A stretch of 64,000 nucleotides of DNA, taken from Vicinamibacterales bacterium (GTDB lineage Bacteria; Acidobacteriota; Vicinamibacteria; Vicinamibacterales; SCN-69-37). Positions 10,182 through 60,778 of this stretch are shown here, piece after piece. Position 1 is the first letter of the stretch. The number at the start of each line of letters is the position of its first letter. Location: the NCBI GenBank assembly GCA_040902895.1, contig JBBDWL010000129.1:6913-70912 (forward strand), written 5' to 3'. A program made the position numbers and the translations under genes. Under the pieces are notes generated by a model. It saw nothing but the letters and a program-made list of their open reading frames with translations. It was not told the DNA's origin and made no database searches.

Positions 10182-10185
10182 TTGC

Positions 10186-10400
10186 AGAATTGGCGATTGG
10201 AGATCGGGTGATGGTTGCCGATTGTTGAATATCGATTGATGGATTAGCCGTTAATATGGGCGTTCGCAGCGGCATCCAGGAGGCGAACGAGCTGGTCGCC
10301 ATCCTCGTAGCGTCTCGACGTACGGCCTCCGGCGGCCGGTAATCGGCGATCTTCGAATCGGCAATCGGCAACAATCAGCCAATCTCCAATCCTCGATCGA
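10186..10400. repeat. Composite imperfect palindrome built from ATTG/CAATC short repeats, in a convergent intergenic region
   Basis: Left arm: AATTGGC GATTGGA GATCGGG TGATGGT TGCCGATTGTTG (about 10189-10227). Right arm: CGGCAATCGGCAACAATCAG CCAATCTCCAATCC (about 10359-10392). The right arm is the reverse complement of the left-arm blocks in mirrored order. A CGTTCGC..GCGAACG hairpin lies at 10261-10289. The element fills the gap between the dut stop (10181) and the C39-barrel gene stop (10405). Confidence 0.55.
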
Positions 10401-10404
10401 GAAT

Positions 10405-12441
10405 TCAGAAGATCCAGTGTTCGAGTCCGACCACTGTACCGGCAGTCAAGGCCCAGCGGCGATCGAGCAATCCGCGCGCGAGATCGATTCGGAACGAGGG
10501 GCCGCCGCCGAGCAGACGTATGCGAACTCCTGCTCCCGCGTCGATCTGTCCATCCGATGCGCGTCCATCGATCAACCGCCATGCGCGCGCGGCATCCGTA
10601 AAGAGCGCGGCGTCGATTGATGCGAGGGGCATTCGCAGCACCGGACGCGACCATTCGACGGTGCCATGGATCAGGCGCTGGCCGATGATGCGGCCGTCAC
10701 CGGCGCCGATCGCGCCGTCCCGAATCAATGGATGCGCCCGAAGCAGCGGCCGGCGCGTGTGGCCGTCACCCGCACCGGGCAGTAGAAACAGCGGCGCGGC
10801 GTCACCGACTCTTTCGGCGCCCGCGGCAATCGTCAGGCGGCCGCCGATAGCCTGAAATCCGGCGCGCGCGCGCCCGCTGAATCGCGAAAGGCCTGCGCGC
10901 CGTGTCCACCGTTCTGCTGTCAGATGTCCATAGACGGTGTTGCTGACGGCAAAGAGGATGCGCGCGGCGCCATAGACTTTGTCGTCACGCGCGCCCCCCG
11001 CGGCGAACGGCCATCGATCGAATGCCGCGCCGGCCGCCCAGCCGAGAGATGGCGTGATCCAGTCAACCGCCTGAAACCCGCCGCGGCGCCAGCGAGGAAT
11101 GGTCAGCGCGTCTCCAACCTCGTAGGTTTCACGCGCATCGAATCCACTCAACTTCCAGACGGCGCCGAACGGCAGCGGCGCAGGCGTTTCGACGGCCGCC
11201 GTGATCCGCTCGAACCCTTCACGGAAGCGCCACGAGCCGGTCACCCGTTCGCCGCCGCCAACCGGGTTCGTGAAAGCCACATCCACTTCACGCGTGAACG
11301 GCGCCTCTGCCGCCGTCATCACGAGATCGACTGCACCAGGCCTGCGCGAGCGCTCTACAATCGCTGCGTCAAGCTGCACACGCCCATCGGCAAGCGGCGT
11401 GTAGCTCACGCGGCTGGCCGAGGAAGACGGCAACAGCGCGAGCCGCCGCCGCGCGCGCCCAAGCCTTGCGGCCGACAGACGATCGCCGGGCCGAAGATCG
11501 ATCAGCCGCTCCGCCGCGCGGTATCGCGTCCGCTCGAGTCCCGCAATCTGGACTGTGTCGACATCCGGCTTGCCCGCGCGATTCCACGCCTCGAGCGCCT
11601 CGACGTCGCGATCCATGACGAACAGGGTCGTGCCAAGGGCGTCCCAGGCGACGGCGTTCGCCGGGTCAGCGGTCGTGGCGTCGGTCGCCAGTCGAAGCGC
11701 CTCTGCACGGTCGCCGGAGTGGAGCAGGGTTGCAACGCGAGTCGCCAGAACAGGTTCCATGGGTTCCACAGGTTCCTTTGGTTCCCCGGGTTCGGTTCTG
11801 GTTCCTGGTTCAACAGGTTCCACAGGTTCGCTCGCCGGGAGCAGCAGCAGCATCCAGAAATTCGCAGTTGCCCATCGTCGATCGAATTCCGTGCGCGGCA
11901 TCGCCTGCGACGGCGCGGCTGCGGGGTCATGGAAGTGCACGCGGTCGCGATCGAGCGCCGTGATAACGACGTAGTGATAGCGCGATGGACGGTCTTCGAT
12001 CAGCGCCACGATCGGGCGGCCGCGCGACAGGTGTTGCGCAACCGGCGCTGCGTCGCCGGCACGGCCGCGAAGCGGGAAGGCCTGCCATTTCCGCCGGCGC
12101 AGATCCGCGACAAGCGCCGTCGTGACGATGCCGCCCTGAGCTTGATCGATCAGCGGCGCGAAATCCTCCGCGCGCGCGAGCGGATCGCCCCAGTACCGCA
12201 TGACCATCGCAGCCGCCGCCCCCCCGCACAGCGCTTCCGTCTGCGGCAGGTAGGGCACGGCCCGCGGCAGCGCAATGCTCTGCGCCGAAGCGACCGACAC
12301 CAGCGCGGCGAAAATAAGGGTTGGCACGGAAACGGCGCGCTCGTTCGGCCGCGACGGCCGGATCGAGCGCGCCAGAGTATGACGCCGCGCTATGCGACGA
12401 TGACGAGGATGATGATCAGCAACGCGATGATGATCAGCCAC
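10405..12441 (-). CDS. Outer-membrane protein fusing C39-like (PA2778-like) cysteine peptidase, TPR, POTRA and an Omp85/ShlB-type beta-barrel
   Basis: 678-aa ORF. C39-like region: LPQTEALCGGAAAAMVMRYWG (Cys) and SRYHYVVITALDRDRVHFHDP (His). The linker is (EPx)n, followed by a TPR-like helix pair. The POTRA-like segment reads VDTVQIAGLERTRYRAAERLIDLRPGDRLSAARLGRARRRLALLPSSSASRVSYTPLADGRVQLDAAIVE. About 330 aa of alternating beta pattern end in the OMP signature ..GLEHWIF. The start is uncertain: the ATG at 12441 overlaps the upstream gene by 52 nt, and the signal-like segment VPTLIFAALVSVASAQS begins near 12330. Confidence 0.75.
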   Translation of the reverse strand: MADHHRVADHHPRHRRIARRHTLARSIRPSRPNERAVSVPTLIFAALVSVASAQSIALPRAVPYLPQTEALCGGAAAAMVMRYWGDPLARAEDFAPLIDQAQGGIVTTALVADLRRRKWQAFPLRGRAGDAAPVAQHLSRGRPIVALIEDRPSRYHYVVITALDRDRVHFHDPAAAPSQAMPRTEFDRRWATANFWMLLLLPASEPVEPVEPGTRTEPGEPKEPVEPMEPVLATRVATLLHSGDRAEALRLATDATTADPANAVAWDALGTTLFVMDRDVEALEAWNRAGKPDVDTVQIAGLERTRYRAAERLIDLRPGDRLSAARLGRARRRLALLPSSSASRVSYTPLADGRVQLDAAIVERSRRPGAVDLVMTAAEAPFTREVDVAFTNPVGGGERVTGSWRFREGFERITAAVETPAPLPFGAVWKLSGFDARETYEVGDALTIPRWRRGGFQAVDWITPSLGWAAGAAFDRWPFAAGGARDDKVYGAARILFAVSNTVYGHLTAERWTRRAGLSRFSGRARAGFQAIGGRLTIAAGAERVGDAAPLFLLPGAGDGHTRRPLLRAHPLIRDGAIGAGDGRIIGQRLIHGTVEWSRPVLRMPLASIDAALFTDAARAWRLIDGRASDGQIDAGAGVRIRLLGGGPSFRIDLARGLLDRRWALTAGTVVGLEHWIF
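11753..11830 (-). repeat. 9-bp tandem repeat (GGTTCCNNN on the + strand) encoding an (E-P-x)n linker
   Basis: GGTTCCATG GGTTCCACA GGTTCCTTT GGTTCCCCG GGTTCGGTTCT GGTTCCT GGTTCAACA GGTTCCACA GGTTCG. On the - strand this translates as EPVEPVEPGTRTEPGEPKEPVEPMEPV, between the peptidase and TPR parts. Confidence 0.8.
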
Positions 12442-12776
12442 ACCGACAGCGTGATGGTTTGGCCGCCCGCAAGCGCGTCAGTCACCTGCTGCGCCTGAGC
12501 CGCAACCTGCGCGAGCTCCGCGCCGTCGAGTGTGCCAACGGCCGCGGCCGCTCTGTCGATCGGGAGGCCGGCCTCTTTGGCGACCTTCCGCACGTCATCC
12601 CGCTGAAGCACATTCAGAATGGCCTGTCGATCGGCCTGCTTCTTTGCAGCATGCTCTGCCGCGATTGCCGTGAGGCTCTGCGAGCCCGCGGTCTGTCCCG
12701 ATTGTGCAGATGTCAGCGAGGGCGCCAGCATCACCGCGAGAAGAATCATCACTACCGTTCCACGAACTTTGCGCAT
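12390..12776 (-). CDS. Small secreted/anchored protein, PA2779-family-like (signal peptide, helical region, GG motif, C-terminal hydrophobic helix)
   Basis: The start is set at MRKVRGTVVMILLAVMLAPSLTSAQS and is preceded by GGAGG 7 nt upstream. The upstream part of ORF 12390..12959 overlaps the zwf 3' end. The protein ends ..QVTDALAGGQTITLSVWLIIIALLIIILVIVA. The family name comes from my memory of the PA2778/PA2779 gene pair and has not been searched. Confidence 0.7.
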   Translation of the reverse strand: MRKVRGTVVMILLAVMLAPSLTSAQSGQTAGSQSLTAIAAEHAAKKQADRQAILNVLQRDDVRKVAKEAGLPIDRAAAAVGTLDGAELAQVAAQAQQVTDALAGGQTITLSVWLIIIALLIIILVIVA

Positions 12777-12871
12777 CTGCAGCCTCCAGAAAGTGCGCGG
12801 CCAGGGAGGCCGCTCCACCCCGGACGGGCTGCACAACTCATGCCCGGACGCGAGATTAGTCGTGGATGAGG

Positions 12872-14257
12872 TTACGGCTCCGCGTCCGGACCCCAGCTCC
12901 CCGGCCGGTAAGGCACGGGCGCTGGAGGTGCCTCGAGCAGCGGCGCATACAGGTACCACGAGCGCTCCACCCAGTCTGAGCGAACGAACAACGTGTGATC
13001 GCCCTGCATGACGTCGGCAAGCAGTGTTTCGTACGCGTCGGCGAGCGGGCCAAACGCTTCGCGATACTTGAAGCCAAGCTGCTGCTCGCGTACGCGAATA
13101 TGCTCCCCTGGTTCCTTCACGGAGAACGTCAGCGAGAAGCCTTCGTCAGGCTGGATGAAGATCGTCAGCTTGTCGGGCCCGACATCGCATCCGGGCAGAC
13201 CCGTGAAGAGCCGCACAGGCGCCGGACGAAAGCTGACCACGATGCGCGTGGAGCGCCGGCGCAGCCGCTTGCCGGTGCGCAGGACGAATGGCACGCCGTG
13301 CCAGCGCCAGTTGTCGATGTGCACGTCGATGGCCGCGAAGGTCTCGGTCGTCGACCCCGGCTTCACGCCCGGTTCGTCGAGATAGCCCGGCACGGCGGTG
13401 TCGTCGACGCTGCCCCCGGCGTACTGCGCGAGCAGCGCATCTCGCGGCGTGACCCGGCGCATCGATCGCAGCACCTTGAGTTTCTCGTCGCGGATGGCTT
13501 CGGCGTCGAACGTGGCCGGCGGCTCCATCGCGACATGGCAGAGCAACTGTGTGAGATGGTTCTGCACCATGTCGCGCACCGCGCCCGCCCGGTCGTAGTA
13601 GGCCGCGCGCGTGCCGACGCCGTCTGCCTCCGCGACCGAGATCTCGACATGCGCGATCCGGTCGCGATTCCACTGCGTCTCGAACACCGGATTCGCGAAC
13701 CGGAAGACCATCAGGTTCCGCACGGTTTCCTTCCCGAGATAGTGATCGATGCGGAAGATCTGCGACTCGTCGAAGTACTGGTGCAGCCGGCGATTGAGCG
13801 CCTGCGAGGATTCGAGATCGTGCCCGAACGGTTTTTCCACCACGATGCGCGTGAACCCGGCGCTTTGATGAAGCCCCGCGGCCGCCAGTCCCTCGACGGT
13901 TTCGACGAATCCCTGGGGCGGCAGCGCGAGATAGAACACACGGTTGCCGCTCAGTCCGTGTTCGCGCTCGAGTGCCGCGATGTCGTCGGCAATCCGCGTG
14001 AAATCAGCCGGCGACCCCGCCCCGATCGACTGATAGTGCACGGCGGCATCGCCCAGCTGCGACAGTGACGCGCGCGCGATATCTCTGAACGCCGCATCGT
14101 CGGGATGCGGATCGCGCGCAACGCCGAGTATGACGAACGGGGAAGGCAGCTCCCCGCGGGCGTGCAGCGCGCCGAGCGCCGGCAGCAGCTTGCGGCGCGT
14201 GAGATCGCCCGTGGCGCCGAAAATCACCAGCAGCAGGGGTGGAATCGGCGCGGTCAT
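12872..14257 (-). CDS. zwf: Glucose-6-phosphate dehydrogenase
   Basis: 461 aa with FGATGDLTRRKLLPAL, the active-site RIDHYLGKE and EKPFGHDL. Confidence 0.95.
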   Translation of the reverse strand: MTAPIPPLLLVIFGATGDLTRRKLLPALGALHARGELPSPFVILGVARDPHPDDAAFRDIARASLSQLGDAAVHYQSIGAGSPADFTRIADDIAALEREHGLSGNRVFYLALPPQGFVETVEGLAAAGLHQSAGFTRIVVEKPFGHDLESSQALNRRLHQYFDESQIFRIDHYLGKETVRNLMVFRFANPVFETQWNRDRIAHVEISVAEADGVGTRAAYYDRAGAVRDMVQNHLTQLLCHVAMEPPATFDAEAIRDEKLKVLRSMRRVTPRDALLAQYAGGSVDDTAVPGYLDEPGVKPGSTTETFAAIDVHIDNWRWHGVPFVLRTGKRLRRRSTRIVVSFRPAPVRLFTGLPGCDVGPDKLTIFIQPDEGFSLTFSVKEPGEHIRVREQQLGFKYREAFGPLADAYETLLADVMQGDHTLFVRSDWVERSWYLYAPLLEAPPAPVPYRPGSWGPDAEP

Positions 14258-15162
14258 TGATCCTTCCTGATCGCGTGGCCTCCGAACTGTCCGCGCAGCG
14301 CCGCCAGCATGCGGTAGCCGAAGCCTTCCCGATCGCGTGACTCGAGCCGCGCGATGAGCGCATGGGTGATCACCGGCGCCGGCGTGTTGAGATCGATTGC
14401 CTCCTGCACGGTCCAGCGGCCTTCACCCGAATCGTCGACCCAGGGCGCCACCGCGTCGAGCGTTGCGTCCTCGGACAGGGCGCGCGCGGCCAGATCCAGC
14501 AGCCACGAGCGCACGACGCTGCCGTGCTGCCAGATGCCGGCGACCTGCGCGAGATCGATGGCGAAGGGCTCTTTCGCCTTCATGATCGCGAAGCCCTCGG
14601 CGAAGGCCTGCATCAGCCCGTACTCGATGCCGTTGTGCACCATCTTCACGAAGTGCCCGGCGCCCGAAGGGCCGACGTGACCCCATCCCCGGTTGGCCGC
14701 CGGTGCAAGCGCTTCCGCGATCGGCTTGAGGCGCGCGATCGGCGCATTCGCGCCGCCCACCATCAGCGAATAGCCTTCGGCGCGTCCCCAGATGCCGCCG
14801 CTCACGCCGGCGTCGACGAATTCAATTTTTTGCGCACGCAGCGACTCGGCCCGCCTCACGCTGTCGCGGTACCACGAATTGCCGCCGTCGACGATGATGT
14901 CGCCGGCCGCGAGCAGCGGCACGAGGCTGTCGATGGTCTGATCGACCGGAGCGCCGGCCGGCACCATCATCCAGACGGCGCGCGGCGCCGCCAGCGCGGC
15001 GACGAGATCCTCGAGTGAGGCGACCGGCTCGATGCCATCGCGCTCTGCGCGGTCGAGCGCATCACGGCTGCGATCGTGCCCGACGACGCGGTGTCCGCGC
15101 TCGACGAGGCGCGCGCTCATGTTGGCGCCCATGCGGCCGAGTCCCACCATTCCCAGTTCCAT
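14254..15162 (-). CDS. gnd: 6-phosphogluconate dehydrogenase (decarboxylating), short ~300-aa type
   Basis: 302 aa with the Rossmann motif MVGLGRMGANMSARL, then GGNSWY and GHFVKMVHNGIEYGLMQ. It has a 4-nt overlap with zwf. Confidence 0.9.
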   Translation of the reverse strand: MELGMVGLGRMGANMSARLVERGHRVVGHDRSRDALDRAERDGIEPVASLEDLVAALAAPRAVWMMVPAGAPVDQTIDSLVPLLAAGDIIVDGGNSWYRDSVRRAESLRAQKIEFVDAGVSGGIWGRAEGYSLMVGGANAPIARLKPIAEALAPAANRGWGHVGPSGAGHFVKMVHNGIEYGLMQAFAEGFAIMKAKEPFAIDLAQVAGIWQHGSVVRSWLLDLAARALSEDATLDAVAPWVDDSGEGRWTVQEAIDLNTPAPVITHALIARLESRDREGFGYRMLAALRGQFGGHAIRKDQ

Positions 15163-15189
15163 CAGTGCCTCCAGGGCTGCGTTTCCTGC

Positions 15190-15218
15190 TTGTCACGTGC
15201 GGCATGCATCTCTATACT
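15190..15218 (+). promoter_or_regulatory. Candidate sigma70-type promoter TTGTCA-17 nt-TATACT
   Basis: TTGTCA at 15190-15195, a 17-nt spacer, and TATACT at 15213-15218. It lies about 40 nt upstream of the small ORF at 15258, in the divergent gap after the gnd start. Confidence 0.35.
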
Positions 15219-16067: not shown

Positions 16068-16080
16068 GGAAATCGGCGGG

Positions 16081-18540: not shown

Positions 18541-18562
18541 AGGTTGCGGGTTAATCAAACTA

Positions 18563-18588
18563 GCCGCGCGAGCGTTGTCTCGCGCGGC
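18563..18588. terminator. 10-bp perfect GC hairpin between convergent sppA and ppiD
   Basis: GCCGCGCGAG CGTTGT CTCGCGCGGC. On the - strand it is followed by UAGUUUGAUU, which is U-rich. There is no U-run on the + strand. Confidence 0.45.
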
Positions 18589-18593: not shown

Positions 18594-18621
18594 CCAGCAA
18601 CCAGCAACCAACTACCAGCTA
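18594..18621. repeat. Four in-phase heptamers CCAGCAA CCAGCAA CCAACTA CCAGCTA
   Basis: The period is exactly 7 nt. The array overlaps the ppiD stop codon (18619-18621) and abuts the hairpin at 18563-18588. Confidence 0.7.
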
Positions 18622-20538
18622 CCGCCCCGCGAACATGGCCTGCAACGTTTCTTCGTTGAGGTCGATCGTCATCTTCTGCTTGGCCTTGGTCATGTAGGAG
18701 GCGAAGAACTGTCCCTTCCGCTCCTGCAGCATCTGGCCGCGCAGCTGTTCGCGCTCGGCGGCGAATTTCACCGGATCGATCGCCTGCTTCTCGGTGACGC
18801 GAAGGACGACCGTGCCGCGGTCGGTGACAATCGGGTCGCTGACGCCGCCCGCGCCAAGCGCGAACGCCGCGGCTTCGACTGGCGCGCTGACCCCGACCTG
18901 GGGGAACGCGGCGCCGCGCGCGATCGGCTCGCTCGTTTCGACGGTGAGGCCGGCCGATTTCGCCGCGCCGGCGAAATCAGACTTGAACGCGCCGGCGAGC
19001 GCCGACGCGCGCTCCAGGGCGATGGCCGACGCCCGCTCCGCGATGTATTCGTCGCGCACGCGATCGCGTATGTCCGCGAGCTGCGCGTCGCGCGGCGGCT
19101 GCACATCGATGACGGTGATGAAGGCCGCGCCCTGCGGTGTGCGCAGCGCGTCGCTCACATTGCCTGATTCCAGTTCGAAGGCGGCCGCCGAGACTTCCGG
19201 CGAGAACCCAAGCCCGGGGACCGGCTCCTCCCTTGCGAAGAGCGGCGAGTCGGCCGCCGTCAGCCCCCGTGCCTGCGCCACGCGATCGATGTCGGCAGGG
19301 TCGTCGATGTCCTTATCGAGCTCCTGCGCAACGCGCTGCACTTCCTGCTGCGCCCGCTCCCATTTGAGCTGCTCCTGGATCTGCGCCGACACCAGCTCGA
19401 ACGGCTGCGTCGTGGCGGCGCGCTTCCCCGTCGCGCGAATGATGTGAAATCCGTACGGCGTCTTGACAATGCCGCTGGTCTGTCCGGGTTCGAGCGCAAA
19501 GGCCGCGTCTTCGAACTCCTTCACCATGGCGTTGCGGCCGAAGAAGTCGAGATCGCCGCCTTTGGCGTTCGACACCTCGTCCTCGGAGTACTGCTTGGCC
19601 AGCGCGGCGAAGTCTGCGCCGGCATTGAGCTTCGCCAGCACGTCTTCGGCCTGCTTGCGCACCGCCGCCTCGTCCTTCCCTTCGGTCTTGAGCAGAATGT
19701 GGCTCGCGCGCATCTGTTCGGGCTGCTGATACTGCGCGATCGATTCGGTGTAGCGCTGCCGCGCGTCGGCCTCGGTGACGGTCACGCGATCGCGCAGCGT
19801 GGCGGCATCGATGTGCAGATAGCGCACGCGCCGTTTTTCGGGCACGCGGTACGTCGCCTTGTTGCGCTCGAAGTACGCCGCGATGTCGGCCTCCGCCGGC
19901 GTGATGCCGCTCTTGTACGCGTCGGCGTTGAACAGCACGAGATCGACTTTCACCTTCTCGTTGCGGCGGCGGTATTCGGCGTCGATCTCCGCGTCGGTCA
20001 GGGTGATCCATGCGGTCAGCGCGTCGCGCATCTTGTCGGACTGCAGCTGGCGCCGCAGCTCGCGCTCGAACTGGTCCACCTGAATCGGCGGCGCCTGCGC
20101 GGCCAGCAGCTGGCGGTATCGCGCGTCGCCGATGAACACGCCGTTCTCCTGGAACGCGGGCAGCCGCAGGATGCGCTCGCGCAGTTCGGCGTCGGTCACG
20201 TTCACGCCGAGCCGATCGGCCTCCGCCAGCACGGCTTCCTCGTCAATCATCTGGCTCAGGATGCGCTGCTCGATGCCGAGCTGCCGCAGCATCTGATCGT
20301 TCAGATTGCCGCCGTACGCCTGACGGTAGGCCTGTACCTGCTGGTTGTACGCGCGCTGAAACTCGGCGACCTCGATATCACGGCCTTCGACGCTGGCGAC
20401 GACGGCGTTGGGCGCGGCGCTGGCGCCCTGCGAGCTCATGAAATCAGGGATGTAGACCAGTACGAACGCGACCACGACCAGGCCGAGGCTCCACTTGAGC
20501 CAGCCTTTGTGCCGCCGCATCCGATCGAGCATTGTCAT
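18619..20538 (-). CDS. ppiD: PpiD-like periplasmic chaperone / peptidyl-prolyl isomerase (membrane anchored, SurA-N plus parvulin domain)
   Basis: 639 aa with N-terminal anchor MTMLDRMRRHKGWLKWSLGLVVVAFVLVYIP. The parvulin block reads MRASHILLKTEG...AKQYSEDEVSNAKGGDLDFFGRNAMVKEFEDAAF...GIVKTPYGFHII. Confidence 0.85.
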   Translation of the reverse strand: MTMLDRMRRHKGWLKWSLGLVVVAFVLVYIPDFMSSQGASAAPNAVVASVEGRDIEVAEFQRAYNQQVQAYRQAYGGNLNDQMLRQLGIEQRILSQMIDEEAVLAEADRLGVNVTDAELRERILRLPAFQENGVFIGDARYRQLLAAQAPPIQVDQFERELRRQLQSDKMRDALTAWITLTDAEIDAEYRRRNEKVKVDLVLFNADAYKSGITPAEADIAAYFERNKATYRVPEKRRVRYLHIDAATLRDRVTVTEADARQRYTESIAQYQQPEQMRASHILLKTEGKDEAAVRKQAEDVLAKLNAGADFAALAKQYSEDEVSNAKGGDLDFFGRNAMVKEFEDAAFALEPGQTSGIVKTPYGFHIIRATGKRAATTQPFELVSAQIQEQLKWERAQQEVQRVAQELDKDIDDPADIDRVAQARGLTAADSPLFAREEPVPGLGFSPEVSAAAFELESGNVSDALRTPQGAAFITVIDVQPPRDAQLADIRDRVRDEYIAERASAIALERASALAGAFKSDFAGAAKSAGLTVETSEPIARGAAFPQVGVSAPVEAAAFALGAGGVSDPIVTDRGTVVLRVTEKQAIDPVKFAAEREQLRGQMLQERKGQFFASYMTKAKQKMTIDLNEETLQAMFAGR

Positions 20539-20772
20539 GTCTTCGAAACCCTCAGGGAAAAGCCGATTATACTTGCCCGGCCTGACTTCATGCCGACCTC
20601 ACGGAAGGGCCGCGCCCCAGCGCGCCGGCCGGGCGCGCGCAAGACAACACGGCCGGCTCGCCGGACCCCGACGCGCGAGGCCGGAACCAGAGTTCTGGTC
20701 CGCCGGGCGGATGCATCGCCCAACCGCCTTACGGCCGCGCTTAGGCCGCTCGCGCGATGGCGCGTCCGGATC

Positions 20773-22073
20773 ATGCCGGCCGACGCGCCGATCGAGCGTC
20801 GCGCAACCGCCGACGGCGTGCTGTGGGAGCTCGGGTCGGGCCGCCCGCCCGACGCCCGGCGCGTGACCCGGCTTGCCGGGGTCATGCCCGTGGTCAGTTT
20901 TACGCTCGACCGCTCGGCGCCGCCCGCGCTCGCCGCGCTGTCTCGCTCGCTCGGGTTTTCCGCGCATCTGGTAGCCCCCCTCGATCGCGCCGCGGTCGCG
21001 GCGGCCCTCGGCCTGCCGCCGTCGCCCGATCTCAAGGAGCGGCTTGCGCGAGTGGGAAAGCGCCTCGAGGGCGCCGATCTGACCGAGGGCTTCATGCAGG
21101 TCGTAGCGGCGGTCAATGCGCGCCGGGATCCGGGCGGCGTGGCCGCAGTCTTGCTCTCTCGCGCTCGGGCCTGGCTGCCGCTGCCCGAATGGGCGGTGCT
21201 GGCCACCGACCCGACCGGCGAGACGCGCTGGCTGGCGGCAGAGGGGGGAAGCGAGCTGACGCGGGATGCGATCGAAGCGGTGGCGGCGCACGTGGCCCAT
21301 ACGGGCGCGCCGCTGGTGTCGCCGCGTCTGGCCGGCGAGCCGGTGATTCAGGCCCGCCTGGAAGCGGCGGCCCTCGCGGTGCCGCTCTCGTGCGACAACC
21401 GGGTCGTGGCCGTGCTGGCCGGGATCGACGGAGGCCGCTCGGCCGGCGTGCCGGCGGCGGCGCCGTTCGGGCCGTCGCGCGCGAAGCTGCGGCGGATGCT
21501 CGAGCCGATCGCCTGCGCGCTCGACAGCGCGCTGCGTCTCGAACGGGCCGAGGCGCTGTCGGTCACCGACGACCTGACGCAGCTGTATAACTCGCGCTTC
21601 ATGCACGCGGTGCTGCGGCGCGAGACGAAGCGGTCGTCGCGGTCGGGGCAGAAGCTGTCGCTGCTGTTCATCGATCTCGACGGCTTCAAGTCGGTGAACG
21701 ATTCGCACGGCCATCTGGCGGGCAGCCGCGCGCTCGTGGAGGTCGGCGCGGTGATTCGATCGTGCGCGCGTGAAACCGACGCGGTGGCGCGCTTCGGCGG
21801 CGACGAATTCGCGGTGGTCCTGCCCGACACCGACGAGGCCGGCGCGCGCGCCGTCGCGGCGCGCGTCCGCGATCGGATCGCGGGGCATGCGTTTCTGACG
21901 TCGGTGGGCCTGTCGGTGCGCCTCACCGCGTCAATCGGCATCGCGACGCACGTGGATCCGACGGCGTCGGCCGATGAACTGCTCGCGGCGGCCGATGCCG
22001 CAATGTATTGGGTCAAGGGCCATGGCAAGAATGGCATTCATCAGGTGAACTTTCTCAGTCCAAAGGTGCAGCG

Positions 22074-22077
<4 letters not shown>
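20773..22077 (+). CDS. Diguanylate cyclase (GAF-like sensor region plus GGDEF domain with RxxD I-site)
   Basis: This is the C-terminal part of the 877-aa ORF 19444..22077, whose first ~440 codons are antisense to ppiD. GGDEF domain: [25 protein letters not shown], and [21 protein letters not shown], which carries the RETD I-site 5 residues before an intact GGDEF. The start is uncertain: ATG 20773 is chosen, and the in-frame ATG at 20590 would add an Arg-rich low-complexity leader. Confidence 0.85.
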
Positions 22078-29458: not shown

Positions 29459-29468
29459 TCAGCCCAAT

Positions 29469-29595
29469 GTAAATTGTAAATGGTAAATAGCATTGTCTAT
29501 TGGGCTATTGCTGCCGCTTCAGTGAAGCACAACAGCGCCACAGCGTAACGTCGCAATTGCAAAATTTACAATGCTATTTACCATTTACAATTTAC
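29469..29595. repeat. Perfect 28-bp AT-rich inverted repeat with a 71-nt spacer, in the rng 3' region
   Basis: Arm 1 (29469-29496) is GTAAATTGTAAATGGTAAATAGCATTGT. Arm 2 (29568-29595) is ACAATGCTATTTACCATTTACAATTTAC, its exact reverse complement. Each arm is itself three GTAAATN heptamers. A nested alternative stem is AGCCCAAT (29461-68) with ATTGGGCT (29499-506). This is the most AT-rich stretch I noticed in the window. Confidence 0.9.
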
Positions 29596-29619
29596 CTTTC
29601 TGATTGTTGGTTTAAGAAC

Positions 29620-29647
29620 AAAAGGCCGGCAGGAAGCCGGCCTTTTG
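29620..29647. terminator. Bidirectional rho-independent terminator
   Basis: ACAAAA GGCCGGC AGGAA GCCGGCC TTTTG: a 7-bp GC stem and 5-nt loop, with an A-tract upstream and a T-tract downstream. It lies between convergent rng (+) and the 29676..30188 gene (-). Confidence 0.8.
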
Positions 29648-30747: not shown

Positions 30748-30854
30748 CCTCTGATTGGCCTCCGTGCGTGGGGAGTCAGATTTGGACACCCGTAGCAATG
30801 ACGGGTCGTGTAGCAAACATCGCGCCGCACCAGCTGGCCGCTGCCGGCGGGAGG

Positions 30855-30961
30855 ACTGAAGACAAAGACACAAAGATCAAAGCAAAAAAGGGGTCCGGCG
30901 GCTGAGCTTAGCCGTCGGGCCCCTTCTTTGTTCAGTCTTCGATCTTTAGTCTTTGGTCCTA
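30855..30961. repeat. Heptad-repeat arms flanking the terminator hairpin
   Basis: Left arm: GAAGA CAAAGACA CAAAGAT CAAAGCA AAAAAG (about 30858-30889). Right arm: AGTCTTC GATCTTT AGTCTTT GGTCCTA (30934-30961), which has an exact 7-nt phase and overlaps the stop codon at 30959-61. The two arms are roughly reverse-complementary. Confidence 0.65.
30884..30930. terminator. Rho-independent terminator (bidirectional) downstream of the DUF4097 gene
   Basis: AAAAAA GGGGTCCGGCGGC TGAGCTTA GCCGTCGGGCCCC TTCTTTG. The 13-bp stem is perfect with G-U pairs on the + strand and pairs 11/13 on the - strand. The - strand reads ..GGACCCC UUUUUUG. Confidence 0.75.
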
Positions 30962-32017
30962 ACGGCCGTTAATTACCACGTCTCCGGAAAAACTGGTGGC
31001 CTCGATGCGGGCGCGACCGTCGCCGTACGTGCCGCGAATGGTGCGGTTGCGGCGCCCGGTCCTGCTGTCGACGCGCAGCTGCTGAAGGCCCGACCGCACT
31101 TCACCAGAGAAGCTCGACGCCTCGATCTCGAAGCCCACGCCCGTGCCGACGGTCAGCCGCACATTGCCTGAATGGCTGCGGAAATCGTACCGGCCGGCCG
31201 GCGTGAGCGATCCGGTGTACTCGACGTTGCCGCTCATCGTATGCAGGTCGGCCTGGTCGCACTGCAGATCGCGCGCGATGATAGATCCGCTGATCGATCC
31301 GAGATCGATGCGCCGCACTTTGATTCCGCGCGCGTGCACGTTGCCGCTGGTGCTCGAGAGCTCGACGACGGCATCATCCTGCGCCGACACCAGCTCCACG
31401 TTGCCCGAGATGGTCTGGCCATTGATGACGCGGCCGGCATCCTGAATGCGAATGTCGCCGCTGATGGTGCCCAGCGCAAGCTCGCCGCGGATGCCCGAGA
31501 CCGTGACACGTCCGGAGATGCTGTCGGTCTTGATGCGCGTGCCGGCAGGCGCCGTCACGCGATAGGCGGTCGACACGTTGATGTTGCGCCGCGTGGTGCG
31601 GCGTCGATCGTCTGGATAGCGCGCCCACACCTCGACGCGGCCCGCGCGCTCGATGACGTCCACCGGAACGAGCGCGAGCTGCGCGCGTGCATCGGCGTCG
31701 CTGGTGCCGCGGGCAGTCTTCAAGATGTCAATCGTCGCCGTGTCGCCGCCGCCGGCCGCCACGGTGATGTCGCCGGCCATGTTATGGAGCTCCAGTGAGC
31801 CGCCGGCGCCAATTTTCACGGTGCGTGTCTGCCGCTCGGTTTGCTCGAAACGGTTCTCGCCGCGGTCGCGCTGATAGCGCATGACACGCGACGTCGGCAC
31901 GGCCGCCCGGGCAGCGGACTCCTGCGTGCCGGCAAAGGCCAGAGCCGGCGCCGCGGGTAGCATGGCGCCCGCGAGCATGATGAGCGCCGCGGCGTGTCGT
32001 GTCTGGATCATGGTCAA
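30959..32017 (-). CDS. DUF4097-family beta-strand repeat protein (putative adhesin-like), secreted
   Basis: 352 aa with a signal peptide. Repeated motifs are SGxV/SGNV/SGDI..V (ISGRVTVSG, ISGDIRIQD, ISGNVELVS, TSGNVHARG, ISGSIIARD, MSGNVEYTG, HSGNVRLTV, FSGEVRS, FSGDVVING). It lies 15 nt downstream of the anti-sigma gene. Confidence 0.8.
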   Translation of the reverse strand: MTMIQTRHAAALIMLAGAMLPAAPALAFAGTQESAARAAVPTSRVMRYQRDRGENRFEQTERQTRTVKIGAGGSLELHNMAGDITVAAGGGDTATIDILKTARGTSDADARAQLALVPVDVIERAGRVEVWARYPDDRRRTTRRNINVSTAYRVTAPAGTRIKTDSISGRVTVSGIRGELALGTISGDIRIQDAGRVINGQTISGNVELVSAQDDAVVELSSTSGNVHARGIKVRRIDLGSISGSIIARDLQCDQADLHTMSGNVEYTGSLTPAGRYDFRSHSGNVRLTVGTGVGFEIEASSFSGEVRSGLQQLRVDSRTGRRNRTIRGTYGDGRARIEATSFSGDVVINGR

Positions 32018-33710: not shown

Positions 33711-33804
33711 GAAATTCTACCCGGCTTATTTTCCCGTCCTTCGAGTCATCTCGCGCGGTTGTGTCATGACTCTTTGGACACAAAAATAAGCCGGGTAGAA
33801 TTTC
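33711..33804. repeat. Perfect 22-bp inverted repeat with a nested 7-bp hairpin, between the beta-barrel gene stop and the ATL gene start
   Basis: The arms are GAAATTCTACCCGGCTTATTTT and AAAATAAGCCGGGTAGAATTTC, separated by about 50 nt. The spacer holds GAGTCAT..ATGACTC. The distal arm overlaps the stop codon at 33803-05. The proximal arm ends about 7 nt from the ATL GTG start. My nucleotide count here disagreed with the ORF track by 1, so I calibrated to the track; coordinates are +/-1-2 nt. Confidence 0.8.
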
Positions 33805-54447: not shown

Positions 54448-55355
54448 CGCACGCGCCGACCGATCCCTTCGACATCGTTCGCCGCCTGTATCGCGCCGTC
54501 AACGAATCGGATCTGGAGACGATCGCGGGTCTGCATGCGGCCGATGCGGTGGCCGAGCAGGTGTTCGACGGCACGTTCGTTGTCGAAGGCCGGGAGGCCA
54601 TTGCTGCCGCCTACGCCGCCGGGCCGCCGCATCGAACAATAGAGGTACGCACCATCGGCGGCATCGAGACCGGCTGGGGCTGGGTGCAGGCCGACTGGCT
54701 CGAAAAGGGGGACGGGTCTCATTTTCGCGCCGGCCACAGTCATTTCCTGATCGAGAACGCGCGCATCCGGCGCCATCGGCGCGTCGTCACAGCCGAAGGG
54801 GATTCGCGCGAGCGCGTCGAGCTGCCGCCGCCGGGATCGCGGCGCTATCCGGCACGACCCATCGCCGGCGTCGGTGCCGTGATATTGATCGACGGCGGGC
54901 GGCCCACGCCTGGCGTCGTGCTGATCAAGCGGCTGCACGAACCCCTGGCGGGACACTGGAGCCTGCCAGGCGGCACGCTCGACCTTGGTGAAACACTCGA
55001 ATCAGCTGTCGCGCGTGAAGCGCTGGAAGAGACCGGCCTCATCGTCGACGTGGGACCCATCGTTGACGTCTTCGATCGCATCCTGCTCGACGAGGCGGGG
55101 AAGGTCCGCTACCATTTCGTGCTCATCGACTATCTATGCCGCCCAATCGGCGGCGAGCTGCGCGCCGGGTCGGACGCCGCGGACGTCGCGATCGCCGAAC
55201 CTGATGAACTCGAGAACTATCGCCTCACCGGAAAGGCCTTCGACGTGATTCAGAAGGCGTTGATGATGAGTCGCGAACGAACGGAGCGGGGCGATGGGGC
55301 CCCGCGAGTGAGTGAGCCAGGCGGGGTGCAGGGGACCCCGCCGAGAGAAAAATGA
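54444..55355 (+). CDS. Fusion of an NTF2/SnoaL-like domain with a NUDIX hydrolase, with a repeat-encoded tail
   Basis: 303 aa. The N-terminal ~120 aa look SnoaL/NTF2-like ([26 protein letters not shown]). The NUDIX box is [24 protein letters not shown]. The tail [25 protein letters not shown] comes from repeat copy D. Confidence 0.8.
55275..55347 (+). repeat. GC-rich ~70-nt dispersed element, copy D (3' end of the NUDIX gene)
   Basis: GAACGAACGGAGCGGGGCGATGGGGCCCCGCGAGTGAGTGAGCCAGGCGGGGTGCAGGGGACCCCGCCGAGAG. Confidence 0.85.
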
Positions 55356-55915: not shown

Positions 55916-55930
55916 CGAAACTGTCCGTAT

Positions 55931-56931
<1,001 letters not shown>

Positions 56932-56935
<4 letters not shown>

Positions 56936-57777
56936 GCCCGATCCACGATCAAACGTACCGGCGGTACGCGGGGCACCGCGAGCCGCCGGGCAAGACCTGG
57001 GCGGTGATCGCGTGGGCCGGCATCCGGAACATGCTCACCAAACGCGCGTTCCTCGGCCTGCTGATCTTTGCCTGGGTGCCGTTTCTGGTCAGAGCCGTGC
57101 AGTTCTATGTCGCGGCGAACTATCCGCAGGTGTCGCAGATCATCGCGCCGAACGCCGCGACCTTCCGCGACTTCGTCTCGCAGCAGGGCACCTTCGCGTT
57201 CTTCATCACGATCTACGTCGGCGCCGGCCTGATCGCGAGCGACCGCCGCGCGAATGCGCTGCAGATTTATCTGTCGAAGCCGATTCGACGCGTCGAGTAC
57301 ATCGGCGGCAAGCTCGCCACGCTGCTCTTCTTCCTTTTGGGCGTCACGCTGCTGCCGGCGCTGCTGCTGCTGCTGATCCAGATCAGTTTCGCCGCGAACA
57401 TCGGCATCCTCCGCGCGCATCCATTCCTGCCGGCCTCTATCGTGCTGGCCACGCTGATTCAGACACTCGTGATGTCGTGCACGATGCTCGCGCTGTCGTC
57501 GCTGTCGAACAGCCCGCGCTACGTCGCGATTCTCTATACCGGTGCCATCTTCTTCACCACCGCGATCTTCGGGGCGCTGGCCGCCATTACCGGCGGCACG
57601 CGCGTGGCCTGGATCTCGATCACCTCGAACGTGTCGCAGGTCACCGACGCCGTCTTCCGCCAGGCGCCGGGCTATCAGTCGCCGTGGCAGGTGTCGCTGC
57701 TGGTGATTCTCGGGCTGATTGCCATATCGGTATCGGTGCTCGAACGCCGCGTGAAGGGCGTGGAGGTGGTGTCGTGA
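56932..57777 (+). CDS. ABC-2 type transporter permease, first of two
   Basis: 281 aa with about 6 TM helices and an ATGA overlap with the ATPase gene. I recognise no specific family. Confidence 0.7.
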
Positions 57778-58697
57778 GCGCCGTGGTGACCTCGGAACAT
57801 CTCTCGAAGTGGTACGGGCAGGTCATCGGCCTCAATGACGTGACGGTGTCGGTGCCGTCAGGCATCACGGGCCTGCTCGGGCCGAACGGCGCCGGCAAGT
57901 CGACGTTCATGAAGCTGATCACCGGCCAGCTCAAACCGAGCAAAGGGGACGTGAAGGTGCTCGGCGAGCCGATCTGGGGCAATCCGAAGCTCTTCTTCCG
58001 CATCGGCTTCTGCCCAGAGCAGGACCGCTTCTACGAGCGCATGACGGGCCTCGAGTGGGTCACGACGCTCGTGCGCCTCAACGGCTACGACGAGGCTGCG
58101 GCGAAATCGGCCGCGGAACGGGCGTTGACGCTGGTCGACCTGATGGAAGCGGCCAACAAGAAGATCGGCGCCTACAGCAAAGGCATGCGCCAGCGCGTGA
58201 AGCTCGCACAGGCCATCGTGCACGATCCCGAACTGATCATCCTCGACGAGCCGCTCGGCGGCATGGATCCCATCGGCCGCCGCAAGACCATCCGCATGAT
58301 TCGCGAATGGGCGAAGCAGGGCAAGAGCATCCTCGTCTCGAGCCACATCCTGCACGAGATCGAGTCGATGACGGCTAACATCCTCCTCATTAATAACGGC
58401 CGCATTCTCGCGGAAGGCAACGTCCACCAGATTCGCGAGCTCATCGACGAGCATCCGCACAGCGTGCACGTCCGCGCCGCTGACCCGCGCCGTCTCGCCC
58501 GCGAGTTCCTGACCAGGGACGATGTGTTGAGCATGAGATTCGAGCCGGGCGCGGTGGTGGTCGAGACCGCGAAGCCGGATCTGTTTTATTCGAGACTGAC
58601 CGACATCGCGGCGGCGGGCGAGCACGGTACGATCGACGAGGTCACGTCACCCGACGACAATCTGCAGGCCGTCTTTCAGTACCTGGTGAAGCAGTGA
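57774..58697 (+). CDS. ABC transporter ATP-binding protein (ABC-2 exporter type), second of two
   Basis: The GTG start at 57774 overlaps the permease stop. Motifs: GPNGAGKST, YSKGMRQR, LIILDEPLGGMD and SSHILHE. The upstream part of ORF 57012..58697 overlaps the permease out of frame. Confidence 0.9.
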   Translation: MSAVVTSEHLSKWYGQVIGLNDVTVSVPSGITGLLGPNGAGKSTFMKLITGQLKPSKGDVKVLGEPIWGNPKLFFRIGFCPEQDRFYERMTGLEWVTTLVRLNGYDEAAAKSAAERALTLVDLMEAANKKIGAYSKGMRQRVKLAQAIVHDPELIILDEPLGGMDPIGRRKTIRMIREWAKQGKSILVSSHILHEIESMTANILLINNGRILAEGNVHQIRELIDEHPHSVHVRAADPRRLAREFLTRDDVLSMRFEPGAVVVETAKPDLFYSRLTDIAAAGEHGTIDEVTSPDDNLQAVFQYLVKQ

Positions 58698-59560
58698 TGC
58701 AGGACTCGATACGATCTACAATTTCCAATACGCCCCAGCACACCGCTCCCGGTTTTCTCTATAGCGCTTTCCGCGTCTTCGACTTCTCTCTGAGTCAGAT
58801 GCTCTGGTCGCGGCGCACGATTTTCATGCTGCTCGTCGTCGGCGTGCCGGTCGTGCTCGCCACCGTGGTCCGGCTGATCGATCAGCTCTCGACGAGCGCG
58901 ATGCAGGTCAACGGCGTCGCGATGGACGGCCCGGCGATCTTCGGCATGATGATCTGGATGTTCTTTGTCCGGTTCAGCGTGCCGGTGCTGAGCATCTTCT
59001 ATGGCACGGCGCTCATCGCCGACGAGGTCGACGACAAGACGATCACGTTCCTCTTCACGCGTCCCATCCCGCGCGGCGCGGTGCTCGTAGGCAAGTACCT
59101 CGCGTTTCTCGCCAGCACGCTGCTGGTCGTGCTGCCCTCGGTGATGCTCGTATGGCTGCTGGTCGTGCCGATCCGCGGCACGCTCGGCGGATCGTTCATC
59201 CCGCTCGTCAAGGACCTGGCGATCCTGGCGGCCGGGTTCGCCGTCTACGGCGCGTTCTTCGCCTTCATCGGGGCGAAGTTCAAGCGTCCGCTGATGATCG
59301 CGCTCTTCTTCGTGTTCGCCTGGGAGAACGCCGCGCTGCTGTTCCCGGGCTACATGCGCCGCTTCACGATCGCCCATTACCTGCAGGGCCTCGTGCCGCA
59401 CACGATGCCCTCTGACAGCGCGGTCACCCTGATCCAGTCCGTGTTCCAGGAGACGCCGACGCTCGGGACCAGCCTCTTCTGGCTGGCCGTGATCTGGGCC
59501 GTCTTCCTATGGCTGGCCGCCCGGGTCGTCGAGCGGCGGGAGTACGTGCTGGAGCAGTAG
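58694..59560 (+). CDS. ABC-2 type transporter permease, second of two
   Basis: 288 aa with about 6 TM helices. It contains LIADEVDDKTITFLFTRPIPRGAVLVGKYLA, an ABC-2/NosY-GldF-like motif. It overlaps the ATPase gene by 4 nt. Confidence 0.75.
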   Translation: MMQDSIRSTISNTPQHTAPGFLYSAFRVFDFSLSQMLWSRRTIFMLLVVGVPVVLATVVRLIDQLSTSAMQVNGVAMDGPAIFGMMIWMFFVRFSVPVLSIFYGTALIADEVDDKTITFLFTRPIPRGAVLVGKYLAFLASTLLVVLPSVMLVWLLVVPIRGTLGGSFIPLVKDLAILAAGFAVYGAFFAFIGAKFKRPLMIALFFVFAWENAALLFPGYMRRFTIAHYLQGLVPHTMPSDSAVTLIQSVFQETPTLGTSLFWLAVIWAVFLWLAARVVERREYVLEQ

Positions 59561-59615
59561 GCCTTGGGCCTAGTGCCTAGTGGCTAGGGCGGGAACGGCC
59601 CTCAGCCCGACCCCG

Positions 59616-59633
59616 TATAATCCCTCTAGAGGG
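59616..59633 (+). promoter_or_regulatory. TATAAT hexamer directly followed by the 12-bp perfect palindrome CCCTCTAGAGGG, 8 nt before the ATG at 59641
   Basis: TATAAT lies at 59616-59621 and CCCTCTAGAGGG at 59622-59633. Upstream are the direct repeats GCCTAGTG CCTAGTGG CTAGGG. No Shine-Dalgarno sequence is visible. Pattern only. Confidence 0.3.
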
Positions 59634-59640
59634 TCTGCCC

Positions 59641-60687
59641 ATGACAAAGAGTACGCGCTACCTCGCCTTTGGCTCTGCCGCAATCGTCGTTTTCGGGCTG
59701 TGCACGGGCCTTGTGGCCTATTACGGGGGCATCCCCTCACTGACCGCCTCACGTGTGGGCCCGCCAGAGCTGGCCCTGGTGCCGGCCGATGCCAGCATCG
59801 TGGCCTTTGCCGACGTCAGAGATGTCATGGACTCCGAGCTCAGGCAGAAGCTGCGCGAGGCGCTGCCGGGCGACCAGAAAAAGCGTGAAGAGCTGCAGCG
59901 GCTCACCGGCATCGACATCGAGCGTGACATCGACCGGGTCGTGGCCGCCGTTGGCGCCGACGCCGAGCATTCCGTGGTGGCCTTCCTCAGCGGCCGGTTC
60001 AACCCCACCCAGATCGAATCACTCGCCCGCCAGCATGGCGGTGAAGTGGTCGACTACGGCGGAAAGCGACTGATCCGGGGGATGCGGCCGAAGCACCCAG
60101 ACAATCACAGCGTCGCGACCGCGCGCGTTCACGGCACTGCGCACGCCGCGAAAGCCGATGTTCACCCGCATTCCGGCGACGACAGTCCGGCGCTGGCCTT
60201 CATCGAGCCTAACGTGCTCGCGATTGGCGCCGAGACCGCCGTGAAAAGGGCGATCGACACACAGAAGTCGGGTCAGAACATCACCACGAACGGCGATGTG
60301 ATGAAGATCATCTCGAGCGTGGCGACGGGCAACAACGTGTGGGCCGTCGGCCGCATGGATCACTTCGTCAGCCGCCTTCCGCAGGAAGTGGCGATGCGCA
60401 TGCCGCCGATTCAGTGGTTCGCGGCGACGGGACGCGTCAATGGAGGCATCCACGCGAGCCTGCGCGCCGAGGCCGTCGACGATCAGGCGGCCGAGAATCT
60501 GCGCGACGTCGTGAGAGGCGGCCTGGCGCTCGTGAAGATGCAGAGCGCGGATCCGAAGATGGCTTCGCTCGCGCAGAGCATCCGCCTCGAAGGCAGCGGC
60601 AAGACGGTGTCGGTGAGCTTCACGGTGCCCGCCGAGTTGATCGACCTGTTGCTTGCGAAAGGCCCGCGGGGGCTCGTTCAGAATTAA
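59641..60687 (+). CDS. Hypothetical N-terminally anchored periplasmic protein (348 aa) following the twin ABC cluster
   Basis: MTKSTRYLAFGSAAIVVFGLCTGLVAYYGG is a TM anchor, followed by a soluble alpha/beta region with a His-rich loop (HPDNHSVATARVHGTAHAAKADVHPHSGDD). I recognise no family. Confidence 0.7.
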   Translation: MTKSTRYLAFGSAAIVVFGLCTGLVAYYGGIPSLTASRVGPPELALVPADASIVAFADVRDVMDSELRQKLREALPGDQKKREELQRLTGIDIERDIDRVVAAVGADAEHSVVAFLSGRFNPTQIESLARQHGGEVVDYGGKRLIRGMRPKHPDNHSVATARVHGTAHAAKADVHPHSGDDSPALAFIEPNVLAIGAETAVKRAIDTQKSGQNITTNGDVMKIISSVATGNNVWAVGRMDHFVSRLPQEVAMRMPPIQWFAATGRVNGGIHASLRAEAVDDQAAENLRDVVRGGLALVKMQSADPKMASLAQSIRLEGSGKTVSVSFTVPAELIDLLLAKGPRGLVQN

Positions 60688-60721
60688 AAGTTGGTAAGTT
60701 GAAAATTCAAAATTGAGAAGG
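60687..60721. repeat. Five heptamers AAAGTTG GTAAGTT GAAAATT CAAAATT GAGAAGG between the stop codon and the terminator hairpin
   Basis: The array has 7-nt phase, is AT-rich, starts at the last base of the TAA stop (60685-60687), and ends 2 nt before the hairpin at 60724. Confidence 0.6.
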
Positions 60722-60723
60722 CC

Positions 60724-60758
60724 GGGCGGCTGGGGACTCTCAGCCGCCCTTCGTATTT
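60724..60758 (+). terminator. Rho-independent terminator
   Basis: GGGCGGCTG GGGACTCT CAGCCGCCC TTCGTATTT: a 9-bp perfect GC stem with a T-rich tail. Confidence 0.65.
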
Positions 60759-60778
60759 AAGCTACACTTCGCCGCGCG

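Follow-up and report, generated by a model that had tools for sequence, protein, structure and literature searches.

The 64-kb window analysed here (C129:6913-70912, where C with a number denotes a contig of the window's genome, G000) comes from a Vicinamibacterales bacterium, and six of its intergenic loci had been singled out for short repeats with a 7-nt period placed beside stop codons. We find that loci 1-4 and 6 probably belong to one genome-wide population of heptamer arrays, which are the arms of cassettes around a gene of the PF05635 family (23S rRNA intervening sequence (IVS) protein, Avd-like) or derivatives of such cassettes, and that locus 5 is a REPIN, that is, a doublet of repetitive extragenic palindromic (REP) sequences. 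Loci 1 and 3 are the remains of cassettes that no longer contain the gene, and locus 6 is a solo arm. Loci 2 and 4 are arrays that extend terminator-like stems and are assigned to the class on architecture only. Sequence comparison within the genome and with its relatives shows that arms and gene travel together, that families multiply within the genome, and that the same site may be filled, collapsed or empty among relatives.

Heptamer arrays and PF05635 cassettes in the genome

The draft assembly (4.58 Mb in 163 contigs, 91% complete, 65.7% G+C) was annotated with a purpose-made codon-usage caller, which gave 3921 genes and 92% coding DNA. Identity at each lag was computed over 1543 spacers and compared with dinucleotide shuffles, both overall and after splitting the spacers into convergent, tandem and divergent. 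The original prediction had named a genome-wide lag-7 excess beforehand as its test, and this excess was found (z = 18.7); it is strong in convergent (z = 13.6) and tandem (z = 12.1) spacers and absent from divergent ones (z = 2.0). Convergent spacers also show the harmonics, with z = 9.9 at both lag 14 and lag 21. In the spacers of 80 related loci the lag-7 signal reaches z = 38, and a strict array, defined as three units with at most two mismatches, is present in 144 of the 648. Seven is also the top period reported by Tandem Repeats Finder (TRF), which was used for array periods throughout, in the non-coding DNA of the genome (265 arrays, with another 51 of period 14).

Strict arrays are about 25 times denser outside genes than inside them, with 206 in 0.37 Mb of non-coding DNA versus 93 in 4.2 Mb of coding DNA, and their density per kb falls from 1.70 in convergent through 1.04 in tandem to 0.30 in divergent spacers. 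The median distance from a stop codon to an array is 15 nt. Units are mostly 7 nt long, at times 8 or 9 nt, with a mean G+C content of 0.44 versus 0.66 for the genome; the median array has three units and the 75th percentile is four. An inverted partner lies within 1 kb of approximately 47% of arrays. Such pairs are also seen around ordinary genes: inverted arrays of CAAGCCC units bracket a short-chain dehydrogenase-like gene at C7:6179-7044, and arrays of AAACTNN units bracket two genes, the first of them ribosomal protein S6-like, at C36:33293-34199. The latter contig carries four AAACTNN-type elements inside 31 kb, one of them filled.

The genome contains twelve PF05635 genes, and all of them lie between inverted tandem arrays of short units. 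These cassettes span 457-657 nt, and each locus has its own unit, which is 7 nt long in about eight cases, 8 nt in two, 9 nt in one and irregular in one; the arms of cassettes and hairpins measure 25-66 nt. None of 194 random small genes taken as a control has periodic inverted arms. In 29 other genomes of the order, the best PF05635 locus has arms scoring at least 16 in 21 genomes and at least 14 in 25; 22 have lag 7 as their best period. Across 30 cassettes the distance between units drops as the identity of the proteins rises (Spearman -0.34, permutation P<0.0005), and thus arms and gene are inherited together. All twelve filled copies, like all loci of the window, lie between protein-coding genes, and none is found in a 23S rRNA helix.

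Transposase-related sequences were seen in two cassette-like settings: an IS630-like transposase gene stands between arms of family A, described below, at C29:14240-15340, and GATTGAnGAT arms at C90:92972-93695 enclose an IS3 orfA-like fragment. Both are probably secondary insertions in cassette loops.

The step from filled cassette to gene-less hairpin is best seen in family A, the family of locus 3, which comprises 40 elements and 68 arms in the genome. Two copies, on contigs C49 and C89, are filled; the two proteins share 75% identity with one another and 71-75% with the open reading frame (ORF) of the related locus L001 (L denotes related loci). When locus 3 is compared with the filled cassette C89:53839-54340, the match is 94% over 47 nt at the 5' end and 92% over 53 nt at the 3' end. 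Short family A copies likewise match the two ends of the filled C89 cassette, and its asymmetry, its last codons and its stop are preserved in them. The intact C89 gene ends in AALKRQQ and a stop, matching the SLKRQQ and stop of locus 3, and CTGCCGCTTCAGTGC recurs in many gene-less copies. On these alignments, which are direct evidence in this genome, the gene-less copies are internal deletions of filled cassettes. What this genome newly contributes is a family of 40 elements that share their arms within one genome, this evidence for internal deletion, and the link between arrays and gene within one order that is described below.

Orthologous spacers tell a similar story. Behind rng, the spacer carries a filled element in L001 and L002 and a collapsed one in the window; in L064 it is empty, and only the terminator is present. 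In L001 and L002 (RNase G identity 84-85%), GTAAATT arms about 480 nt apart enclose a 138-aa PF05635 ORF; in L064 RNase G is 91% identical and the element is absent. The predicted intrinsic terminator of rng, an ordinary one that lies outside the element in the window, stands alone in L064 and follows the filled element in L001 and L002. Lengths of orthologous spacers range from 2 to 605 nt at locus 3 and from 1 to 225 nt at locus 5. The junction of locus 5 is occupied in L006 (15570-15794) by a 225-nt GGTTCTC/GAACCCG hairpin with a minimum free energy of -128 kcal/mol, and that of locus 4 by a GGTAGTT hairpin in L031 and by a REP sequence of another family, B, in L001 and L002. Whether relatives keep the period while changing the unit had been suggested as a check, and this was observed at the same junctions (L006, L031); the arrays themselves are not conserved, an outcome that had been expected to speak against the pattern. 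Because the 7-nt period persists at the same junctions, we consider that unconserved arrays fit a fast turnover of insertions and do not argue against the pattern.

PF05635 genes were found in 39 of 61 genomes of the order. We measured array density in 40-165 kb per genome from 24 genomes (other genomes of the order are denoted G), at coordinates picked regardless of the PF05635 gene. In the twelve genomes that lack the gene the median number of arrays per 100 kb is 2.0, the same as the coding background of the window's genome, and in the twelve bearers it is 9.0 (Mann-Whitney P=1.2e-4, Spearman 0.73), with the reservation that these genomes are related, so that P overstates the evidence. Within the window's own family, the PF05635-less G005 has 1.8 arrays per 100 kb versus 6-15 in G024, G040 and G053. 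Thus, within the order, arrays are mostly found only where the PF05635 gene is found, and they are at background in most genomes without it.

The six loci of the window

The repeat sequences lie at the positions originally given, except that locus 1 was off by one base. According to our gene calls, the spacers filled by loci 1, 2 and 3 are convergent and those filled by loci 4, 5 and 6 are tandem. A search of the window against Rfam gave a tRNA as the sole match: none of the six loci matches a family, and there is no match to rRNA. The features are collected in Table 1.

Table 1. Positions of the loci and associated features in the 64-kb window
Feature	Position	Strand	Description
Solo array GCCTGTR x6.6	2307..2353	none	Fills a 45-nt spacer; TRF; no hairpin in fold, z +0.4
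Solo array GAAGACN x3.9	7037..7063	+	Overlaps the stop of gene 4093-7053; TRF, fold
Locus 1	10189..10395	none	207-nt hairpin; fills the convergent spacer between a dUTPase gene and a C39-peptidase-like gene (Pfam)
PF05635 3'-end remnant and stop codon	10274..10343	+	Loop of locus 1; reads IQEANELVAILVASRRTASGGR followed by a stop
Locus 2, GC-rich terminator-like hairpin	18563..18588	none	10 pairs, 9 of them G-C (terminator scan)
Locus 2, array CCAGCAA x4.3	18594..18623	+	Overlaps the stop of a ppiD-like gene (18619-20538, minus); TRF period 7, 86% matches
Locus 3	29459..29605	-	Gene-less, internally deleted member of family A, directly 3' of the rng TGA stop
Last six codons and stop of a PF05635 gene in locus 3	29505..29525	-	SLKRQQ and stop (translation)
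Predicted intrinsic terminator of rng	29619..29647	+	Outside the locus 3 element (terminator scan)
Locus 4	30852..30962	none	111-nt hairpin; bidirectional terminator-like core stem 30888-30925; fold -67.4 kcal/mol
Locus 5, REPIN (REP doublet), family C	33711..33804	none	94-nt doublet with arms GAAATTCTACCCGG...
Array of TAGGCCN type	59561..59590	+	Directly after the stop of gene 58694-59560; TRF, fold; unpaired
Locus 6, solo arm, AAGTTGG family	60684..60715	+	Unpaired; starts inside the TAA stop of gene 59641-60687
GC-rich terminator-like hairpin	60724..60749	+	3' of the locus 6 array; ordinary; fold z -2.6, array unpaired

For each locus, the best window of 14 lag-7 comparisons was set against 1000 dinucleotide shuffles of the spacer. 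The 7-nt period claimed for all six loci is clear at loci 2 (12/14), 3 (12/14) and 6 (11/14), where 0/1000 shuffles do as well; it is weaker in the right array of locus 4 (10/14, 14/1000 shuffles) and marginal at locus 1 (10/14, reached by 46-48/1000), and it is not seen at locus 5 (7/14, 618/1000) or in the left 'CAAAGA' array of locus 4 (262/1000). Of the proposed order of stop codon, array and GC-rich hairpin, the stop codon is constant: every locus abuts or overlaps one. A GC-rich hairpin does not accompany every array, and where the two stand relative to each other differs between sites. Very long hairpins are predicted at loci 1, 3, 4 and 5 (fold z of -4.9, -8.7, -8.3 and -8.1, respectively); the fold is modest at locus 2, and at locus 6 the array is unpaired. 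The six loci are also not the complete set, since at least three further arrays are present in the window, at 2307, 7037 and 59561 (Table 1).

The arms of locus 1, at about 10189-10245 and 10340-10395, consist of GATYGG-type units of approximately 7 nt, and no second copy of them was found in the genome. Its inverted repeat (I4) covers 30 nt with 90% complementarity, and the folding energy is -99.7 kcal/mol. The loop peptide IQEANELVAILVASRRTASG resembles the C-terminus LQEARELVAILAASRLTAQG of the PF05635 protein encoded at C66:78701 (tblastn against the 64-kb window, 75% over 20 aa, E 4e-4), and the arms of that C66 cassette are built of GATTGnn units, the same type as those of locus 1. In locus 3, the arms at 29466-29511 and 29553-29598 (GTAAATN three times, followed by GCATTGT CTATTGG GCTATTG) form an inverted repeat (I1) of 46 nt with 87% complementarity.

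At locus 2 the array pairs only partly, with GGTTGCGGGTT at 18542-18552 (z -3.3). The hairpin and array together have a 94% identical copy at C141:50488-50536 (blastn), and CCAGCAA/ACCAACA arrays akin to that of locus 2 occur at eight further sites in the genome. A GC-rich hairpin (GCCGGCAGGGACAAAGCCCTGCCGGC or TAGCCGCGCGAGCGTTGTCTCGCGCGGCT) adjoins CCAGCAA-type arrays at C66:57820-57846, C141:64215-64245, C83:24797-24826 and window 18563-18588, and this recurrent hairpin may be a separate repeat family. The stem of locus 4 is extended by AAGACNN/NGTCTTN arrays at 30856-30890 and 30934-30961. In a terminator scan that covered 18.4-34.0 kb of the window, the top three terminator-like sites are the GC-rich core hairpins of locus 4, which ranks first, and of loci 2 and 3; in sequence they fit the pattern of a GC-rich stem followed by a T run, and the arrays lie outside that pattern.

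The AAGTTGG family, to which locus 6 belongs, has about 25 sites in the genome, nine of them hairpins. A 30-nt arm identical to that of locus 6 makes a perfect hairpin at C47:134764-134820, and the filled cassette C81:48285-48765 has related arms; at locus 6 itself no PF05635 remnant was found. In a hand count, solo AAGTTGG arms showed no clear bias with respect to the direction of the upstream gene (about 10 co-oriented, 6-7 not).

Grouping locus 5 with the others was a mistake. It has no heptamer array and, judged by its arms, copies and flanks, it is a REP/REPIN element with its own RAYT (REP-associated tyrosine transposase), a separate and already known kind. Copies 88-90% identical across about 90 nt lie on contigs C90 and C56. 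The core of this family C, AATTCTACCCGG, has 49 copies, and inverted copies flank a Y1 (HUH)/RAYT-like gene at C161:4363-5034 (unit C161:4298-5025). The genes flanking locus 5 are only 1-11 nt apart in the close relatives L001, L002 and L064, and therefore locus 5 is an insertion. A second REP system of the genome, family B, has 138 copies of the core GGGGACGGGTCT and a Y1 gene on contig C62 (C62:3231-3956). The family B core is also present at 54708-54719 of the window, within a called gene, at chance level (29/100 shuffles hold at least one). We considered the RAYT as the enzyme of the heptamer arrays and rejected it: the two Y1 genes of the genome belong to families B and C alone, which are not periodic, and the 2.5 kb around each of them contain no heptamer array.

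Other observations concern the genes of the window. On the minus strand at 11749-11829, in the C39-peptidase-like gene, 9-nt GGTTCCACR repeats encode (E/K)P(V/M)EP; a similar peptide is given by the C-terminal extension of the PF05635 ORF C32:9207-9842, which apparently runs into a GGTTCC-type arm. The repeats in the peptidase-like gene may be an array read in frame inside a gene. A gap of 1.5 kb in the gene calls at 20539-22073 contains long ORFs (20599-21888 minus, 19444-22077 plus), and relatives have a 458-aa gene at the corresponding place.

Proposed history and competing explanations

The full-length form is a cassette of 450-660 bp, in which inverted arrays surround one PF05635 gene in the loop, and which occupies a spacer beside a stop codon. 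Loss of the gene by internal deletion yields gene-less hairpins, as at loci 1 and 3, and then solo arms, as at locus 6; arrays are also found as extensions of terminator-like stems, as at loci 2 and 4. The accumulation after stop codons may arise because insertion is tolerated there. By analogy with the 23S rRNA IVS, transcribed stems of at least 20 bp could be cut by RNase III, the gene for which is present in the genome, or could act as 3' stabilisers. Of the explanations offered by the original prediction, the one with the strongest support is that of small palindromic mobile elements forming a family, given the 40 elements of family A, the roughly 25 sites of the locus 6 family, and spacers of relatives that are filled, empty or taken by a different hairpin.

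Several points weigh against this history. No movement event was observed, and spread is read from the comparison of sequences. Target-site duplications were not found in 27 copies of family A at any offset with k = 3-8 (at most three copies agree, as expected by chance), and local clustering of this family is weak (P ~0.02-0.04 at 3-6 kb, not significant at 10-20 kb). No recombinase or transposase was found inside any heptamer-armed cassette: the parents encode the PF05635 protein only, for which we know of no catalytic activity. Solo arrays make up about half of the total, and ordinary genes too can lie between inverted arrays (C7, C36), so that arrays might arise without a cassette. Loci 2 and 4, in which no gene remnant was found, are included by architecture alone, and hardly any relative of locus 4 exists in the genome. 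G055 and G051 are exceptions to the co-occurrence of arrays and gene, as they have arrays without an intact PF05635 gene (G055 has 10 arrays per 100 kb, and its sole PF05635 match is weak and partial), and the relatedness of the genomes tempers the density contrast itself. Finally, the gene calls are crude, especially at start codons.

A functional partnership, which would be compatible with the cassette history, is a tentative addition that we regard as rather unlikely to be correct. Here the arrays would be binding sites of pentameric PF05635 proteins, one unit per paralogue, which control the processing, stability or copying of RNA or DNA. Every one of the twelve genes comes with a unit family of its own; the more alike two proteins are, the smaller the distance between their units tends to be, and identical CGGGATT units are kept by proteins that share 49% identity; arrays and gene co-occur across genomes; and the PF05635 gene is placed as a RAYT is between its REPs. 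The closest solved chain is 2RLD, and in Xanthomonas the family is a homopentamer according to work cited in PMC4990558. On the other side, binding is putative and co-inheritance alone accounts for the correlation; the array length expected for five sites is not seen (median three units, 75th percentile four); G051 and G055 retain arrays although they have no intact gene; and the Coxiella protein is apparently not made (PMC4990558). In its fullest form, PF05635 proteins would be trans-acting partners of the heptamer arrays, like the RAYTs of REPINs, with each paralogue recognising its own unit and driving the copying, maintenance or RNA processing of gene-less hairpins. We hold this form to be equally doubtful; if true, it would explain together the dispersed heptamer repeats of many phyla and a large PF05635 family of unknown function.

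A local origin is less probable still. In this scenario, slippage beside terminators would create the arrays, template switching (quasi-palindrome correction) would then copy an array across the hairpin, and the host would keep the product because the lengthened stem improves termination or mRNA stability. The arrays of loci 2 and 4 do surround terminator-like stems and have no gene remnant, unit number varies among copies and among Coxiella strains, about half of the arrays are solo, and arrays are enriched at gene ends. Slippage, which had been offered as an explanation, may well alter the number of units, but it leaves unexplained why dispersed copies share arms and gene remnants: the 40 family A elements, at unrelated sites, have in common arms of about 50 nt (90-97%), asymmetric inner ends and codons of the gene. 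In addition, orthologous spacers are not conserved, and unrelated units occupy one junction in different lineages; arrays are at background in most PF05635-less relatives, which need terminators too; and many hairpins lack the U tract. That the periodicity is chance or a compositional artefact read into AT-richer spacers is very hard to credit, despite the null results at locus 5 and the left array of locus 4 and the marginal one at locus 1, as the genome-wide excess (z = 18.7; z = 38 in relatives) with its harmonics at lags 14 and 21, the top rank of period 7 in TRF and the approximately 25-fold higher density outside genes refute it for the class as a whole; it holds for locus 5 only.

Over-representation of heptamers in bacterial genomes has been reported for decades without explanation, and this genome ties it to PF05635 as a relation between autonomous and non-autonomous elements. 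Should RNase III cut these elements as it does rRNA IVSs, hundreds of genes in a dominant group of soil bacteria would have their 3' ends and operon transcripts reshaped. A mode of spread that involves neither transposase nor target duplication would pose a new problem in mobile DNA.

Comparison with known systems

The original prediction knew of no described class with these properties. This is true of the link between arrays and cassettes: our literature searches found no paper that joins heptamer repeats with PF05635 IVS genes or describes such cassettes outside rRNA. Tandem heptamers themselves are in print, as the short tandemly repeated repetitive (STRR) sequences of cyanobacteria, as GGGAATC repeats in Xanthomonas, of which 70-75 convergent pairs are able to form stem-loops (PMC4692102), and as the GGACCGG and MTYCTGA families of Geobacter metallireducens, with four or five tandem heptamers and paired five-unit sets (PMC2700814). 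The arrays described here resemble them in being tandem 7-nt repeats, typically of 3-5 copies, mostly intergenic, multi-copy and often in convergent pairs, and, as in STRR, the tandem 7-nt units are over-represented against other periods. They differ in that their units are very diverse and AT-richer than the genome, and in that the published families were described as simple sequence repeats, G-quadruplexes or regulator sites, with no link to PF05635 or to an IVS-like cassette.

Like REP/REPIN-RAYT systems, the heptamer families are short, palindromic and multi-copy, lie in spacers after genes, have a single 'master' gene bracketed by inverted repeat copies and leave no target duplication. 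In contrast to those systems, they bracket a PF05635 gene and not a Y1 enzyme, their arms are tandem arrays and not one fixed palindrome of 20-35 nt, and there are many unit families per genome. They share with MITEs (miniature transposable elements with inverted repeats, non-autonomous derivatives of DDE transposons) the short, internally deleted derivatives that retain the two ends of a longer element with a gene and are more numerous than this parent; unlike in MITEs, there is no target-site duplication here and no transposase in the parent. Avd, from diversity-generating retroelements, belongs to the same fold family and is a pentameric four-helix bundle in a nucleic-acid-handling system, but no reverse transcriptase, template repeat or variable repeat stands beside any PF05635 copy here. 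We rejected a link to reverse transcriptase: the only such gene of the genome, on contig C117, is seemingly of group II intron type and has neither a PF05635 neighbour nor nearby heptamer arrays.

The closest parallel is the ORF-bearing 23S rRNA IVS of Coxiella burnetii and Leptospira ('S23p' ORF), which likewise holds a PF05635 gene in the loop of a long terminal inverted repeat, has tandem heptamers in the stem region (GACAGAT in Coxiella) and measures about 430-650 nt. In Coxiella the gene belongs to the same family, the stem is 28 bp long with mapped RNase III cuts, the number of GACAGAT heptamers varies between strains, and 23S rRNA IVSs have been proposed as selfish or mobile (PMC4990558). 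A comparable long stem, formed by terminal inverted repeats, is predicted at loci 1, 3 and 4 (z -4.9 to -8.7). The PF05635 ORF is found in the loop of the filled genome copies and of L001 and L002, with C-terminal remnants only at loci 1 and 3. The elements described here differ from IVSs in lying between protein-coding genes and not in rRNA helices, and in their number and variety, as this one genome holds twelve filled copies and hundreds of arrays, together with multi-copy families that include gene-less derivatives and solo arms.

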